DNA from: Candidatus Bathyarchaeota archaeon
GTDB taxonomy: Archaea > Thermoproteota > Bathyarchaeia > Bathyarchaeales > Bathyarchaeaceae
Direction of reading: 5' to 3'
DNA: 57,240 nucleotides
Assembly: GCA_963697165.1 (NCBI GenBank)
Contig: CAVOMX010000016.1
Location: 1-57,240, forward strand
The notes under the pieces are model-generated. The model was not told the DNA's origin. It ran no database searches and saw nothing but the letters and a program-made list of their open reading frames with translations. The stretch's first letter is position 1. Each line of letters starts with the position of its first letter. Shown here piece after piece: positions 44,184-55,567 of this stretch. The position numbers were made by a program, and so were the translations under genes.

Positions 44184-44408
44184 TGGTGGGGCCGGCCGGA
44201 GTTGAACCGACGACCTTTACCCGGAACAGTTCATTCCCTGTCCCTACGGGTTTCTCCTCGCTCCAGAATTTCGTCATCCCAGAGTATGGTCAGCAAACCC
44301 ATTGCATATTTCTGGAGCCCTTAACGGTTTGCACCGTTTGTCGGTACACTATCGTCATCCCTTTCTAGCGCCCCATCAAAAGACAGAGCGTGGCTAGACT
44401 ACGGCCCC
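44184..44408 (-). tRNA. tRNA-Trp(CCA) with four BHB introns
   Basis: Removing 44363-44391, 44321-44350, 44252-44311 and 44217-44245 gives a 77-nt cloverleaf with loop CTCCAGA and ACCA end. Confidence 0.9.
44252..44311 (-). ncRNA. Intron-encoded box C/D guide RNA of pre-tRNA-Trp
   Basis: ATGACGA (C-like) and CTGA (D) boxes; ATTCTGGAG and ATGGGTTT are complementary to the host anticodon region. Confidence 0.7.
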
Positions 44409-44495: not shown

Positions 44496-44619
44496 GGGTT
44501 GCCGGCCATAGGGTGTGGGACCCACCTGATCCCATTCCGAACTCAGAAGTTAAACCACTCTCCGTTTCCGGTGTTAGTGTGGGCTTCGGCCACGTGAAGC
44601 CGGGAAAGCTGGCAATCCA
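44496..44619 (+). rRNA. rrf: 5S rRNA, unlinked from 16S/23S
   Basis: GGCCATAG...CACCTGATCCCATTCCGAACTCAGAAGTTAAAC; terminal GGGTTGCC/GGCAATCC helix. Confidence 0.95.
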
Positions 44620-48693: not shown

Positions 48694-50202
48694 GTGCCTG
48701 AACTTCGGGAAAATGAACAGAAAACCTTGCTTACCCTAGAAAAGCTTAAAGGAAGAGCTCCAGTCGATCAGATAGTCAAAACGTAGCGGTTTGGCTCACG
48801 CAGCAGTTATGCGGGCTGCACTATCTCTCACCGAAAACAAGCTACTAAAAACCTACGAAAACCAGCAAACATTGATCTCGTTGAGCGCAGAAGGAAGAAG
48901 CTACTCAGAAATAGAGCTTCCCGAACGACGCCTCCACAATGCATTAATCAAGCTTGGCGGTGAAGCAAAAGTTAATTCGGTCATGGATGAAGCAGGATTA
49001 GAAAAGAAGTTTCTATCCGTCGCTTTGGGGTGGATTAATCGAAAGGGCTGGGCGACAATAAAACAAGGAATGTTAAAATCCTTGAAAGGAATCTCCGCCC
49101 GGAGATGACGAAAAACTTCTGCACCTCTTATCCGAAAAAGAATCAATGGTTGTTGAGGATTTGGGTCAGGAACTGCAGAAGACTGTTTCTGTTCTGAAAG
49201 GGCGAAAACTCGTGGAAATCGAAGAGAAGACCATGCGTGAACTGGAGATTAACTGATGACGGCTGGACGCTAGTTAAGAAAGGAATTACCTTTCAGGACG
49301 AAATTAGCCAGCTAACTCCCGAGCTTATCCGAACAGGAAACTGGCGAAACGTAAAACTTAGACGATTCGACGTGACTGCCCCTGGTCCAGTAAGCTATCC
49401 TGGAAAAATTCATCCAGTTCAACAGGTAATTCAGCAAGTGAAAGAAATCTTTTTGGAGATGGGCTTCACTGAGATTCGAGGAGACATGGTTGAAACAGCC
49501 TTCTGGAACTTTGACGCACTGTTTCAGCCTCAGGACCATCCCGCGCGAGACATGGTAGATACTTTCTACTTGTCTCACCCAAAACAGGGTAAGTTGCCCG
49601 AAAAAGCTGTTGTGGATGCGGTTGCGAAAACCCATGAAAACGGCTGGACTACAGGTTCTAGAGGCTGGGAATATAGATGGAGTGCACAAGAAGCTAAGAA
49701 AATTGTGCTCAGGACGCATACAACAGCTACAACTATTCGTTACTTAACGGAACATAAGGAGCCTCCCGTCAAAGTCTTCTCAGTGGATAGGGTTTACCGC
49801 AACGAAAAATTGGATTACAAGCATCTTGCAGAGTTCCATCAAATTGAAGGAATAATTATGGACCGCAAGGTAACCCTGCGAGACCTTATGGGAACCTTGA
49901 AAGAATTTTACCAGAAACTTGGTCTGGAAAAGGTGCAGTTTTGGCCTAGCTACTTCCCCTATACTGAGCCTTCTTTACAGTCCACAGTTTATGTTCCAGA
50001 ACTGAAAAATTGGATTGAACTTTGTGGTATGGGAATATTTCGTCCAGAAGTTTTGGCTCCCCTTGGCGTGAAGCATCCTGTTTTGGCGTGGGGTGGAGGC
50101 TTGGAACGTTTAATACTTCTCAAACTTGGAATTGAAGATATTCGGCTCTTATACAAGAACGATTTAGGTTGGATAAGGAGGAATCCGGTGTGCCAACGAT
50201 AA
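48694..50202 (+). CDS. pheS: Phenylalanyl-tRNA synthetase alpha subunit (frameshifts in the N-terminal part)
   Basis: FWNFDALFQPQDHPARD, LRTHTT, AEFHQIEG, YFPYTEPS, AWGGGLERL. Confidence 0.95.
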
Positions 50203-51875
50203 CTTTGGACAGAGAGCGTTTCTCTTCTTATGTTGGACGCGACCTATCCGTGGAAGAGATGGCTAAATGGCTTCCGTGGCTGGGAACTGACACAGAAGAG
50301 GTCGGCTCGGATTACGTGAAAATCGAGTATAACCCAAATCGTGTGGACTTTTGCAGTTACAGTGGAGTGGCTAGAGCATTTCAGGGACTTATGGGATGGG
50401 AGACAGGCTTACGAAAATACGAATTGAAACAGGGTAACATCACATTGAAAGTGGACAAAAGCGTAGCCGAGGTGCGACCATACATTGTCTCTGCTGTTGT
50501 TCGAGGCTTGAAAATTGACTCTGACGCCATCCGAGAACTTATGGACATGCAAGAGGCTCTCCACTGGATGATCGGTAGAGACCGAAAAAAAGCTTCAATT
50601 GGAGTTCACAAATTGGACACTGTTGAACCCCCATTCTCTTACGTTACATGTGCTCCCAATGAAGTCACGTTCGTGCCCTTAGACAAAGCTGAACCAATGA
50701 CTCCACAGCAAGTCTTAGAAAAGCACGAAAAAGGCGTGGCTTACAAAAGTCAGGTCGATTGGGCTTCAAGATATCCTTTGGTTGTTGATCGAACGGGGCA
50801 AATTCTTTCGTTTCCGCCAATAATTAACGGCGAGTTGACCAAAGTTGATGAGAATACGCGTGATCTTTTCATCGAAGTTACAGGTACCGAACTAAACGCT
50901 ATCTCAAGAAGCTTGAACGTTCTCGTCACGGCCCTCGCAGATATGGGTGGCACCATAGAAACTGTTTGTGTTGAATATTCTGACCAAGTTTTAGTTACTC
51001 CAGACCTTACGCCTCAAAAGATGAAGTTACACGTAGATTATGCAAATGAGCGTTTAGGTCTTAATTTTTCAGAAGCCCAAACTATAGAGGCTCTGCAAAA
51101 ATCTAGACTTGAAGCGATAACAGTTGAAAACGGGATTTTAGAGGTTACGATTCCCGCCTACCGAACCGATATACTACATGAGATTGACTTAGTTGAGGAG
51201 GTTGCCGTCGGTTACGGCGTTTTCAGGTTGGAGCCTACAAAACCAGCGACAGTTACGACAGGCAAAAAGCATGTAGTCAGTGAGGTAGCGATGGCTGTAC
51301 GGCAGATAATGGTGGGGTTAGGTTTTGCGGAAGCCTTGAATTTTGTTCTCACCAACGAGGGTGATCACTACCAGAAGATGCGCCGAAAACCTGAAGGGAT
51401 AGTTACTTTAGCGAACCCGGTCTCTTCAGACTATTCTATAATAAGGAACGATTTGTTGCCTAGCCTAATGAAAAACTTGGCAGTAAGCAAACACCACATT
51501 TTCCCTCAGCGAATGTTCGAAGTCTCCGACGTAATCAAACTTGATGACAACTCTGAAACATATACAGAACGGCGAATACATGTTGCGGCAGTTTCTTCGC
51601 ATCTAACAGCCAACTTCACGGAAATAAAGTCCATTCTTGAATCTTTATTGATGAACCTTGGATTCGAAAACTGGACTGTAAAAGAAACTAGCCATCCAAG
51701 TTTTCTGAAGGGAAGAGCCGCCACCGTTTCATTAGATGATGTGGAACTGGGTGTTGTGGGAGAGATTCACCCAGAAGTCCTAAACAACTTTGAACTGGAA
51801 AATCCGACAAGCGCCTTCGAACTAGACCTACAAAAAATTATCAACGGAACGATTGAACGTATGTTCTGGGATTGA
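50190..51875 (+). CDS. pheT: Phenylalanyl-tRNA synthetase beta subunit
   Basis: PTITL start, NPNRVD, SFPPIING, PAYRTDILHEIDLVEEVA, GEIHPEVL. Confidence 0.95.
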   Translation: MPTITLDRERFSSYVGRDLSVEEMAKWLPWLGTDTEEVGSDYVKIEYNPNRVDFCSYSGVARAFQGLMGWETGLRKYELKQGNITLKVDKSVAEVRPYIVSAVVRGLKIDSDAIRELMDMQEALHWMIGRDRKKASIGVHKLDTVEPPFSYVTCAPNEVTFVPLDKAEPMTPQQVLEKHEKGVAYKSQVDWASRYPLVVDRTGQILSFPPIINGELTKVDENTRDLFIEVTGTELNAISRSLNVLVTALADMGGTIETVCVEYSDQVLVTPDLTPQKMKLHVDYANERLGLNFSEAQTIEALQKSRLEAITVENGILEVTIPAYRTDILHEIDLVEEVAVGYGVFRLEPTKPATVTTGKKHVVSEVAMAVRQIMVGLGFAEALNFVLTNEGDHYQKMRRKPEGIVTLANPVSSDYSIIRNDLLPSLMKNLAVSKHHIFPQRMFEVSDVIKLDDNSETYTERRIHVAAVSSHLTANFTEIKSILESLLMNLGFENWTVKETSHPSFLKGRAATVSLDDVELGVVGEIHPEVLNNFELENPTSAFELDLQKIINGTIERMFWD

Positions 51876-51915
51876 ATAGAAAAGCTTAATGTTCTTGTGA
51901 ATCGTCTTTTAAGTT

Positions 51916-52255
51916 GCGATGATAGTTGGCTGGAGCATAATCCCGCCGGAACCTTATGCGGGCTCATGCAGACGGACCCGACAGAGGATGGTGACTTTCA
52001 TCTAACCGTTGAAGAAGGGTTTACCCAGGCATGGGACACGGTGGGCGCGGGCAAAAACTTACCCACGTTTGAGAGAGCTCATCTGAGAAGAGCGTTTTAG
52101 CTCCGACTGTGAGGGTGAGAGTTAGTGACGTGGGACACAACGCCCGCGATAATTACTGTTTAGTTAGTTCATGTCTACTCCAAAAAAGTCGGGTTGAATT
52201 TCTCCAGATGGAACCGAACGGGCATTTCGGATTGCGGGAGACATCTCTATTATGT
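51916..52255 (+). ncRNA. Candidate ~340-nt structured non-coding RNA of unknown family
   Basis: BRE/TATA-like gaaaagcttaat at 51879-51890; at least six nested long-range helices; no credible ORF. Confidence 0.55.
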
Positions 52256-52256
52256 C

Positions 52257-52285
52257 ATGGGTTCGGAATCCCACTCCCCGCACCA
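52257..52285 (+). repeat. tRNA-Leu-like 3' fragment (T-arm, acceptor strand, CCA); att-like copy 1
   Basis: ATGGGTTCGGAATCCCACTCCCCGCACCA. Confidence 0.7.
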
Positions 52286-52413
52286 TTGGATTGCAGATAA
52301 AAACGTGGAAATATTTTGAAAATTCAAGTCTTTGATTACAAAAAAACAGTAAAAACTAAATGTGCTGCAAGACATAACTAAAAATTCCATAACAATAATT
52401 TTGAGGAATAATC

Positions 52414-53202
52414 ATGAAAACTGTGATCCACACAGATAAATTATCTAAGTATTATGGCAAGGGCAACGAGATCAAGGCAGTAGATGGGCTTGACCTTGAA
52501 GTTTATAAAGGAGAGACTTTTGGTCTTCTTGGTCCAAATGGAGCGGGCAAGACAACAACAGTTCGCTTGTTGAACTGTATAATCAAGCCAAATACAGGAA
52601 CAGCCACCGTCAACGGATATGACATTCGAAAAGAGCAAAACAAAGTTAAAAGCATTACTGGAATGTTGTCAGAGTCACCTGGTTTATACGAAAAACTAAG
52701 CGCTTATGAATTTCTTGAGTTTATTGGCTCCCTATATGATGTTCCAAAAGATGTTCTCAAGGAAAGAATCAACGACTTGCTGAATTTGTTCAGTCTTATA
52801 TCAAGGCGCGATGATTTACTCGAAGGCTACAGTCGTGGAATGAAACAGAAATTGTTGATTGCAGCAGCGTTGATTCATGATCCACCAATACTATTTCTAG
52901 ATGAACCTACTTCAGGTTTAGATCCACGGGCTGCACTTATGGTCAAAGATTTGATTAGGAAATTGGCTACCACTGCTGGAAAAACAATCTTCGTTTGCAG
53001 CCACATCCTTCCAATTGTTGAAGAACTTTGCTCCCGCATAGGAATAATTAACCAAGGCAAACTTATGATGGTAGGAACAGTAAAAGAGATCCTTGATGAA
53101 ACTAAGACAAAAAACCTAGAACAAGCGTTCATTGCGTTGACAGGAGGTGTTGAAGAAAAAGAACTACTGGCGTGGAGGGAACACCGAGCTGCCAGCACCT
53201 AA
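52414..53202 (+). CDS. ABC transporter ATP-binding protein (exporter type)
   Basis: GPNGAGKTT, YSRGMKQK, LFLDEPTSGLD, SH. Confidence 0.95.
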   Translation: MKTVIHTDKLSKYYGKGNEIKAVDGLDLEVYKGETFGLLGPNGAGKTTTVRLLNCIIKPNTGTATVNGYDIRKEQNKVKSITGMLSESPGLYEKLSAYEFLEFIGSLYDVPKDVLKERINDLLNLFSLISRRDDLLEGYSRGMKQKLLIAAALIHDPPILFLDEPTSGLDPRAALMVKDLIRKLATTAGKTIFVCSHILPIVEELCSRIGIINQGKLMMVGTVKEILDETKTKNLEQAFIALTGGVEEKELLAWREHRAAST

Positions 53203-54805
53203 ATGGTTTGTGGTTGCTAAGAACCAATATAGGATTTCCACAAGTGCCATAAGGGGAATTAGAGCATACTTCCCCTATCTGATTATAGGAGTATTATCGG
53301 TTTATGTGGCGCTTATCGCTCCAGCTATTGTCAGTCCATTCATCGATGACTTTCTCGTATTCATAATAACCCAAGCTGCAATACCATTAGTACAGATTAT
53401 ATTGTTCATGTTCTTTTTCTTTCTAATACTGTTCCCAATCAGCGACACATTAAGGGAATTGCAAACTGGGCAATTGGAGATTTTCTTGGCAGCTCCTGTA
53501 AAGCCGAGTGATGTGCTGTTGGGCGAATTTCTGGGTAAAATGCCTTTCTATGCCATCGCAATTGCAGTAATCACTGGGACTTTCACAGCTTTTCTGACTC
53601 CTCTGGGATTAGATATAGCTCAAATTATGATAATCATCGCAGTTTTTGTCGTAACATTTCTATCCGCCTTCTGGATCGGTATTGTTATTGCTGCAGTCTT
53701 GGGAACAAAGCTTGGAAAAATTGCCAAGGGAAAAGATGTTGGAAGAGCTCTTGCAGTTGTCATTGTTCTACCCATGATTGCAGTAATATACGCGATTTTG
53801 GGGGGAGGTTTGCCTAAAGCTCTTGCCGATCCAGGAACGAGTGAAATTGTTAGAGCAGCTTTTAGTGTGTTACCTAGTTCTTGGAGTGCTGAAATCTTCG
53901 TTGACTTTACTTCAAACCCTAGCGATATTGGTGCTGTTGGTTTTGAGACATTGACCCGATTCGGAGGGCTCATCATTTTCTTCATAGTTGCCTTATGGGT
54001 GGGTACGAAAGTAGCCAGTCGTGCCTACAGTCTTGAACCCTCCAAATTCACATCTTCTAAGGCCAAGTCTGACAGTTTTTTCTACAAGACAATCAGTTTT
54101 GTTGGAGGGGGTGGATCATTTGGGGCTCTCTTATCTTCAATCTTTAAAGATTACAGTAGAAGGCTTGAGAACTTATCATGGATTGTTTATGCTGTGGGGT
54201 TGGTCGCCTTGATAAGGATATTTATTTCTGATCCTTCGTCAGAGCCCATCGATCAACTAGTGTTCTTGAGCCAGATGGCAATCCCATTTCTTGCTGCTTT
54301 TGTGGTTGGAACAGTCAGCAGAGGAAAGAGTGCTCTTTTCATATTTAAGAAGTCACCATCTGGAATTAGGAAGTTCGTGAAGGCTAGGCTGGTGCAAGGT
54401 TGGTTGGTGGCAGTTCCAATCGCTGCAATTTTGATCGCTGTCTCAACGATCTTACTTCCTCAAATCATGTTGGTGCCCTTGTTGATCAATATAGTATGGG
54501 GTTCGCTGAGAACTTTAGCTTTAGTTGCCGTAGTTCTAGGTTTAGCTATTATTAACCCGATTTTCTCTGAAGAATCAAGAGAACGCAATATGGGAATAAT
54601 AATAAACCTTATGGTAGTCCTATTCGCCACGATAGGACTCGGGATTGGTTTACCAAGGCTAGGTCTCAGTTTTGGAAAGATGATTCCAAATCTAGACCCG
54701 TTTACCGTTATCTTATATGATCATCTCTTGTTTACCATGATTTTTTCTTTGGTAGGAATTTTGCTGCTTTACATTGGGAGTAGAAAGCTAGATAGAATCG
54801 AATAA
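53147..54805 (+). CDS. ABC exporter permease (start probably near 53190)
   Basis: Many TM helices, overlaps the ATPase stop; FLAAPVKPSDVLLG. Confidence 0.8.
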   Translation: MLKKKNYWRGGNTELPAPKWFVVAKNQYRISTSAIRGIRAYFPYLIIGVLSVYVALIAPAIVSPFIDDFLVFIITQAAIPLVQIILFMFFFFLILFPISDTLRELQTGQLEIFLAAPVKPSDVLLGEFLGKMPFYAIAIAVITGTFTAFLTPLGLDIAQIMIIIAVFVVTFLSAFWIGIVIAAVLGTKLGKIAKGKDVGRALAVVIVLPMIAVIYAILGGGLPKALADPGTSEIVRAAFSVLPSSWSAEIFVDFTSNPSDIGAVGFETLTRFGGLIIFFIVALWVGTKVASRAYSLEPSKFTSSKAKSDSFFYKTISFVGGGGSFGALLSSIFKDYSRRLENLSWIVYAVGLVALIRIFISDPSSEPIDQLVFLSQMAIPFLAAFVVGTVSRGKSALFIFKKSPSGIRKFVKARLVQGWLVAVPIAAILIAVSTILLPQIMLVPLLINIVWGSLRTLALVAVVLGLAIINPIFSEESRERNMGIIINLMVVLFATIGLGIGLPRLGLSFGKMIPNLDPFTVILYDHLLFTMIFSLVGILLLYIGSRKLDRIE

Positions 54806-54979: not shown

Positions 54980-55005
54980 GGGTGCGAATCCCACTCCCCG
55001 AACCA
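54980..55005 (+). repeat. tRNA-Leu-like 3' fragment; att-like copy 2
   Basis: GGGTGCGAATCCCACTCCCCGAACCA; 20/21-nt core shared with 52266-52286. Confidence 0.7.
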
Positions 55006-55567
55006 TCGTATGACCCTTAGCTTTTGTTTGGGATCTGAAGAAACAGGGAAGAAAAGAAAGCACTCTCGTATCGATTTCTAACGCAAGGAAAGTTTCAATA
55101 TCTTTTCTTTCTGTTTCTGTTAATATTCCTTATTTCATCAAAGGAACCTGAGATGTAACTACTGTGGGTCAAACCCTTGCTTTCGATAATTTCGTGAGAA
55201 AACACTTGCCAAAAAAGTATAACATTTCCCAATATTCAAACAGATGGACAGCATATAAATTGATAAGAGTAATGAAAAAAGTCAGTAAAGACCTATGTGA
55301 CAATCCCGACGTCATCGAGTTCATTAAAAAAGAATCATCAAAAAGATACGGAAAAGAAGCCATTATTCCATATGGAAGATTCCTGGATATTTACTACTGG
55401 ACCGACTCCAATACTTGACTTTAGAAAAAGAGGGGATTTGAGGTTGTTGTGGCGATGTCTTCACAGTTACAGTAATTTCTTTTTATCCAGAAAAAAGGGA
55501 GGTAACGGGAAATTAATCATTATTGAAAGGATAATAACAACTTTGCACTTATGGCTTTATGATTAAA

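Follow-up and report, generated by a model that had tools for sequence, protein, structure and literature searches.

The window, a stretch of 57,240 nucleotides from a Candidatus Bathyarchaeota archaeon, harbours a conserved non-coding element that very probably specifies a box H/ACA guide-type RNA. The element, its parts and its immediate neighbours are arranged as follows.

50169..51875, forward strand: pheT (archaeal PheRS beta; TIGR00471 pheT_arch, 594.7 bits), the upstream neighbour, outside the RNA
51879..51892, forward strand: putative BRE/TATA-like promoter, from a TATA-like box and the alignments
51914..52151, forward strand: box H/ACA-type RNA gene with two hairpins, its ends placed by conservation, not mapped
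51914..51939, forward strand: 5′ K-turn or K-loop hairpin (2-bp stem, 3-nt bulge, tandem G.A), a predicted extra L7Ae site
51942..52045, forward strand: clamp helix P1 (51942-48 with 52039-45), enclosing hairpin A and its ACA box
51963..52038, forward strand: H/ACA hairpin A, from covariation, ACA placement, pocket conservation and target scan (lower stem 51963-69/52029-35; pocket 51970-75 and 52021-28; K-turn G.A 51984-85/52011-12; ACA 52036-38)
52046..52148, forward strand: clamp helix P2 (52046-52 with 52142-48), enclosing hairpin B and its ACA box
52062..52137, forward strand: H/ACA hairpin B, from a 14-bit match to HgcG motif III, covariation and target scans (lower stem 52062-68/52128-34; pocket 52069-77 and 52120-27; upper stem 52078-84/52113-19; K-turn G.A 52085-86/52111-12; ACA 52135-37)
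52150..52220, no strand assigned: degenerate copy of a dispersed intergenic repeat, from matches in related genomes, outside the RNA
52255..52285, forward strand: tRNA-Leu 3′-end remnant (T arm to CCA), att-site-like, from identity to tRNA-Leu(CAG), outside the RNA

The gene pheT lies immediately upstream of the element in 25 of 30 loci, and 22 of the 30 aligned loci carry a TATA-like box 30–32 nt ahead of the point where conservation begins. At the other end, homologous matches obtained in a DNA search of 41 related genomes terminate between window positions 52134 and 52171, mostly around 52150, and beyond these ends the alignments contain unrelated sequence. The conserved element (51914-52151) is thus 238 nt long. 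The original prediction, made from the letters of this DNA, described a structured, promoter-bearing non-coding element downstream of pheT; homologs, covariation and the TATA-like box all support that description and its conservation.

Upstream, pheS is distributed over two frames, as a 105-aa and a 321-aa open reading frame (48791-49146 and 49237-50202), and the match of the latter to the archaeal model is confined to residues 179-494. This split suggests a frameshift or an assembly error. Elsewhere in the window, ARAGORN, run so as to permit introns, predicts at 44184-44408 on the reverse strand a tRNA whose intron measures 132 nt and whose anticodon is doubtful; it is divergent from the 5S rRNA gene at 44498-44617 on the forward strand.

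The element is widespread among the relatives of the host. Long DNA matches are present in 22 of 24 genomes of the same genus and in 13 of 16 genomes belonging to other families, among the 41 searched. A covariance model built from 30 homologs (alignment A2) detected the element, usually as a single match, in 134 of the 151 genomes sampled from the class; the class is Bathyarchaeia, assigned by named relatives, and the sampled genomes are kin and not independent of one another. When the phylum was sampled, 58 of 151 genomes were matched, including 35 of 128 outside the class, where the match often rested on one hairpin only. In addition, a 31-nt pattern derived from the element retrieved 96 named records: among the 80 titles listed, 79 are Bathyarchaeia or Bathyarchaeota and one is an unplaced member of the Thermoproteota.

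Variations on the two-hairpin plan have been observed. In some genomes (L093, L094, L112/L113, L104, L105) hairpin A is absent between the P1 strands or the hairpins are located on different contigs and, to judge from those loci, the hairpin modules can apparently be lost or split independently. In another class of the phylum (L123-L125, L128, L130, L132, L152-L154) a second clamped H/ACA hairpin, mostly with a 5′ K-turn, stands upstream of the helix 69 hairpin. This second hairpin keeps the 3′ pocket strand of the type directed at the peptidyl-transferase centre (PTC) and has a different 5′ strand, and in the same loci both hairpins appear as separate units.

The fold of the element emerges unprompted from comparison. 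From a sequence-only alignment, RNAalifold derived two hairpins whose internal loops are open, and around each of them one more helix. For the 50-pair structure, 97.1% of cells pair across 30 homologs. Two-sided changes occur in 20 of the 50 pairs, compared with a mean of 5.0 in shuffled alignments; none of 500 shuffles attained 20, and slid controls gave 2–5. In the wider alignment A3 (63 matches), which was fitted to the model and so leans towards it, 48 of the 50 pairs display two-sided changes. Folding stability is modest, with a core z-score of −1.74 (10 of 200 shuffles as good). As the lower stem of hairpin A has a probability of only 0.11 in the single-sequence ensemble, this stem rests on covariation, which comprises two-sided changes in five of its seven pairs in the 30 homologs.

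The anatomy is that of an H/ACA RNA: the succession of lower stem, internal pocket and upper stem covaries in both hairpins. ACA lies directly 3′ of the lower stem of hairpin A in all 48 parsed homologs, 15 nt from the upper stem. In hairpin B, ANA is found 14 nt from the top of the pocket in 27 of 30 homologs and at 14–17 nt in 56 of 58. The K-turn G.A positions are invariant in alignment A2, and the bulge-side motif of the K-turn is present in 47 of 48 (hairpin A) and 57 of 58 (hairpin B) sequences. Pocket and K-turn are separated by 10 layers in both hairpins, non-canonical pairs included, where some 9–10 pairs are typical; for the ANA/ACA box the typical distance from the pocket top is 14–16 nt. 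These are the features by which archaeal H/ACA motifs are defined in two published accounts (PMC4652768, PMC7075261). On these sequence grounds, the region 51914-52151 very probably represents an archaeal box H/ACA RNA of the guide type, 238 nt long and present throughout the class. It would be a structural variant of the Pab40/sR-h45 type, overlooked by Rfam, and no new RNA class is opened by it.

The two clamp helices are among the distinctive traits of this RNA. The 3′ strand of P1 begins right after ACA box A, and P2 abuts P1 and closes hairpin B; a small variable hairpin (51952-62) is also accommodated within P1. In the 30 homologs P1 is 100% paired and P2 98% paired; their pair probabilities are 0.81–0.84 and 0.92–0.95, respectively. 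Both were recovered by RNAalifold from a sequence-only alignment of 25 full-length sequences, hand-picked from the 63 matches, with two-sided changes in four of six P1 pairs and five of six P2 pairs; in the closer set of 30 homologs only one of seven pairs of each clamp shows such a change. An alignment-free duplex test, applied to the sequences parsed out of the 63, compared the pairing of each strand with its own partner against the cross-species mean; the own partner came out ahead in 37 of 46 cases for A and in 29 of 32 for B, by small margins, and this test is weakened by several mis-parsed rows and by high-scoring GC-rich shuffles. The 5′ K-turn motif is frequent in the order, with 26 of 30 rows of alignment A2, and scattered across the class, with only 18 of 56 rows of the wider alignment A3. 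In certain other classes, inspection by eye revealed comparable clamps enclosing a single hairpin.

A review, where it deals with eukaryotic RNAs, places the ACA box three bases from the 3′ end (PMC7991803). Tandem archaeal guides likewise contain internal ACA boxes, so that it is the clamping alone that stands out here. The clamp helices would be likely to protect the ends and to hold each hairpin folded. Neither an H/ACA RNA of Bathyarchaeia nor clamp helices of this kind were described in the top matches of a literature search, mostly of open-access papers, and a prior description is possible.

A C/D-box reading of the 5′ end was considered and discarded, as the bases following the C-like box close the local K-turn and then form the P1 clamp.

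To identify candidate targets, the pockets of 48 (A) and 58 (B) homologs out of the 63 matches were scanned with a home-made score against 910 rRNA uridines of the host 23S and 16S, allowing 2–6 unpaired nucleotides. The scan covered rRNA only, host rRNA was used for all homologs, and E. coli numbering was anchored on the host 23S and 16S sequences. The pocket strands are near-fixed while the stems vary: five positions of the 3′ strand of A are constant in 48 of 48 sequences, and four positions of the 5′ strand of B in 58 of 58.

Hairpin A scores best in the PTC loop, at 2585 (−18.7, against −12.7 for the runner-up). In the host the duplex comprises 6+5 pairs around five unpaired bases, with U2585 at n+14 and U2586 at n+15. 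Under the strict two-unpaired-base (UN) rule, pocket A misses the PTC site and its best match becomes 16S 1045 at −9.6; the assignment needs a wide pocket, because the strict rule offers only this weaker 16S site. Judged by the 15-nt ruler and by homology, the most likely target is U2586, or U2585 if the U.U opposition stays open.

The two best sites of hairpin B, 1915 and 1921, are both in helix 69. For the host genome alone the top site is U1917, with 6+9 pairs (score 30.5, next 20.5). The strict UN rule gives 1921 as the best site, and strict UN geometry is seen only for U1921; other registers leave 3–6 bases unpaired, the 1915 register 5–6. The options amount to 4+9 pairs (1915), 6+9 (1917, with one stem pair opened), 5+4 (1921) and 7+2 (1923), a tenth pair reported by the script having been left out of the count, as it uses a base of the lower stem. 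Each helix 69 register employs a near-invariant guide base that is mismatched in the other, an A of the 5′ strand (58 of 58) and a G of the 3′ strand (56 of 58), as would be expected if both registers were under selection. U1915 and U1917 appear the most likely targets, in the manner of Haloferax SL2, and U1921 or U1923 might be reached by a 6-nt slide.

Of five genomes selected for their variant guides, only one contained the helix 69 pattern, in unchanged form, and the four genomes read share an identical helix 69, so that the target offered no variation against which guide–target covariation could be shown. In family f37 (L137-L139, L151, L155) the 3′ pocket strand of hairpin B is a perfect complement of host helix 69 1916-1922, pointing to U1923 as the putative target in that lineage.

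Taken together, the conservation, the covarying fold, the motifs, the pockets and the host gene complement make it highly probable that the element is a guide RNA, predicted to direct, with Cbf5, Nop10, Gar1 and L7Ae, pseudouridylation of the 23S rRNA at the PTC (hairpin A) and in helix 69 (hairpin B). The host genome encodes Cbf5 (recognized by its DKCLD domain), Nop10, Gar1 and two genes of the L7Ae family, which were not told apart. The RNA would be transcribed from its own TATA promoter; the K-turns would be bound by L7Ae, the lower stems and ACA boxes by Cbf5, and the assembled Cbf5/Nop10/Gar1/L7Ae particle would convert 23S uridines to pseudouridine at both sites.

Contigs from RNA libraries of four studies fall within 51894-52151 at a depth of 2–5, one of them passing at 52151 into sequence that is unrelated. 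Selection of the runs was based on their containing this stretch: 20 of 23 listed runs carry a small share of it, and the contigs, which derive from five runs of the four studies, are unstranded and carry no end information. No contig covers 52152-52290 or most of the flanking 12 kb, an absence of cover that proves nothing. These contigs are compatible with expression of the element.

Alternative readings have to be weighed against that of a pseudouridylation guide. While the 50S subunit is being assembled, an H/ACA-type particle might chiefly act as a holder or chaperone of helix 69 and the PTC loop and pseudouridylate them little or not at all. In each of the two best duplexes some five target bases stay unpaired, the ACA boxes are internal and directly followed by a helix, and the pocket strands are near-invariant across the class, all of which would suit such a role. 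Pockets are, however, known to tolerate more than two unpaired bases (De Zoysa 2018, as cited in PMC7075261), deletion has shown that homologous guides of Haloferax modify the same sites, and the ruler distances fit catalysis, which leaves the chaperone role very improbable.

The H/ACA guide may instead have other genuine targets, such as 16S 1045, 23S near 1955, a tRNA or an mRNA, an explanation to which we give scant credence. In its favour, 16S 1045 is the best strict-rule site of pocket A and pairing in the 1955 region of 23S ranked first when the host genome was taken alone. Nevertheless, the gap in the 1955 register starts with G and leaves the invariant outer A of either strand unused, and the energies amount to roughly half the value obtained for the PTC.

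Within the favoured interpretation, that of a guide for the PTC and helix 69, a bolder version is conceivable. Bathyarchaeia and some relatives may share a clamped H/ACA architecture in which the ACA boxes are locked in closing helices and wide pockets serve several pseudouridines, hairpin B sliding between 1915/1917 and 1921 or 1923 and hairpin A modifying U2585, not U2586. As a whole this proposal is considered rather unlikely.

At gathering score Rfam detects only the 5S rRNA and one tRNA in the window, and nothing over the element. At E≤10, the region 51800-52450 gives three matches, two eukaryotic SNORD families attributable to chance and HgcG. RNase P RNA, SRP RNA and group II intron models produce no match at that threshold in this region, in keeping with the original view that the element is neither RNase P nor SRP RNA nor, despite a faint likeness, a recognizable group II intron.

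The remaining claims of the original prediction concern a larger structure of ~340 nt, which exceeds the ~238 nt delimited by the homologous matches. The seven helices listed do all form pairs where they were placed, but only the two inner ones, 52046-52/52142-48 and 52062-68/52128-34, are part of the conserved structure. The four outer helices have their 3′ arms at 52169-52253, in a tail that relatives lack. This tail (52152-52255), which also carries one arm of the supposed pseudoknot, pairs no more than chance would produce. When it was shuffled, 426 of 500 versions nested at least four helices (≥6 bp) with the core, for which reason the outer fold is attributed to chance, and 464 of 500 equalled or exceeded its number of helices. 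Folding of the 351-nt stretch as a whole is likewise not better than that of shuffled sequence (z −0.83). The pseudoknot strand 51941-46 pairs instead with 52039-45, in the helix that is fully paired in the 30 homologs, and what was taken for a GAGA tetraloop represents the G.A strand of a K-turn. Nor is the class of the RNA unknown, given the anatomy of an archaeal box H/ACA guide and best-fitting rRNA sites that coincide with those of characterized guides. Both an RNA of ~340 nt and of unknown class, built on nested outer helices plus a pseudoknot, and a remnant of a group II intron can be dismissed almost outright: the helices pair in this one genome and Rfam is silent at gathering score, but the tail is absent from homologs, consists of a dispersed repeat and a tRNA remnant and pairs at chance level, and no intron family matches the region at E≤10.

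The dispersed repeat at 52150-52220 has six matches in the related genome G019 and one each in G008 and G013. It measures 50–70 bp and contains a partial inverted core (L036:623-693, 1496-1573, 2362-2408; L037-L041). Three copies in G019 are spaced ~870 bp apart, each separating single small genes in a cassette-like manner, and we take such a cassette-bounding repeat to resemble recombination sites of the dif or att kind; canonical attC ends were not found by eye in the repeat. The adjoining remnant is 91% identical over 33 nt to the host tRNA-Leu(CAG) on contig C24. A 21-bp direct repeat derived from the tRNA-Leu 3′ end (52266-52286 and 54986-55006, 20 of 21 positions identical) brackets an ABC-transporter gene pair at 52414-54805. 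A third copy resides on host contig C6 (48209) and shares with the copy at 54986 a further upstream stretch with a short palindrome. To judge by sequence likeness, these repeats look like att-site remnants of elements targeting tRNA-Leu. The tRNA-like 3′ end prompted a search for a tRNA with nested introns, which ARAGORN did not call; next to the RNA, moreover, the remnant shows no conservation. Reading 52234-52285 as a mini-tRNA with a CUA anticodon, an idea from inspection by eye only, was not backed by homologs.

The element likely guides modification of the most conserved pseudouridines of the large subunit in an abundant and largely uncultured archaeal class. It would extend the Pab40/sR-h45 type into the Thermoproteota, where Rfam does not detect it, and its clamps and wide pockets offer a testbed in vitro for the limits of the H/ACA rules.

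Among characterized RNAs, a close resemblance is seen to sR-h45 of Haloferax volcanii. According to PMC7075261, deletion assigned Psi2605 to the 5′ hairpin of this RNA and Psi1940/1942 to the 3′ hairpin. Grosjean et al. (PMC2584109) give E. coli 2586 and 1915/1917 as the counterparts of the Haloarcula sites and describe the hairpins as homologous to stems II and III of Pf7/Pab40. As portrayed in these papers, sR-h45 resembles the element in having two H/ACA hairpins (HP1/SL1 and HP2/SL2) in the same 5′–3′ order, without motif I, the 5′ hairpin serving 2586 and the 3′ hairpin helix 69 1915 and 1917 with a widened unpaired target. The target of the 3′ hairpin has an unpaired UNUN, and activity of this hairpin on UCUG is mentioned as well, as data not shown (PMC7075261); UCUG is the sequence of the corresponding helix 69 target in the host. 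In contrast to the element, sR-h45 is described as having a 56-nt linker with a possible pseudoknot and an SL1 that uses a typical UN. The element has two abutting clamp helices, a 5′ K-turn hairpin and a pocket A that leaves 4–5 bases unpaired, the comparison being one of descriptions.

A second point of reference is HgcG/Pab40/Pf7/Afu4 (RF00064). In PMC2377435, motif 3 of Pab40 is assigned to helix 69 and motif 2 of Afu4/Pf7 is predicted for the 2586 equivalent (Muller et al.). The last motif of HgcG thus guides helix 69, as hairpin B does by prediction, and the motif III matches are reciprocal. The HgcG model matches 52061-52134, with its last hairpin (motif III), at 14 bits, short of the gathering threshold of 77; genome-wide, another host locus scores 14.5 bits and none of four other genomes has a match at E≤1, while 4 of 20 chosen homolog loci of the phylum do, the best at 30.3 bits. 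Conversely, the 30-homolog model R1 matches motif III of Thermococcus HgcG at 23.4 bits (rough E 1.8e-8) and gives no match to motif II. That HgcG locus (L167, 194 bits) was the one true locus of six from a second pattern search, the first having yielded only a bacterial chance match. HgcG differs from the element in its three tandem motifs without enclosing helices, as seen in the Rfam structure and in Thermococcus L167. The element has two hairpins with no counterpart in place of motif I of L167, and adds the 5′ K-turn hairpin, the clamps and the wide pockets. It is very likely related to sR-h45 and to motifs II–III of Pab40.

Finally, according to PMC11077068, deletion showed that a single guide strand of sR148 of Sulfolobus islandicus serves both E. 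coli 1917 and yeast 2266, helix 69 sites that are separated by 6 nt. This RNA, described there as atypical, with a 3′ guide strand only and without lower stem or ACA, is unlike the element in these respects; pocket B can nonetheless make the same 6-nt slide on paper.
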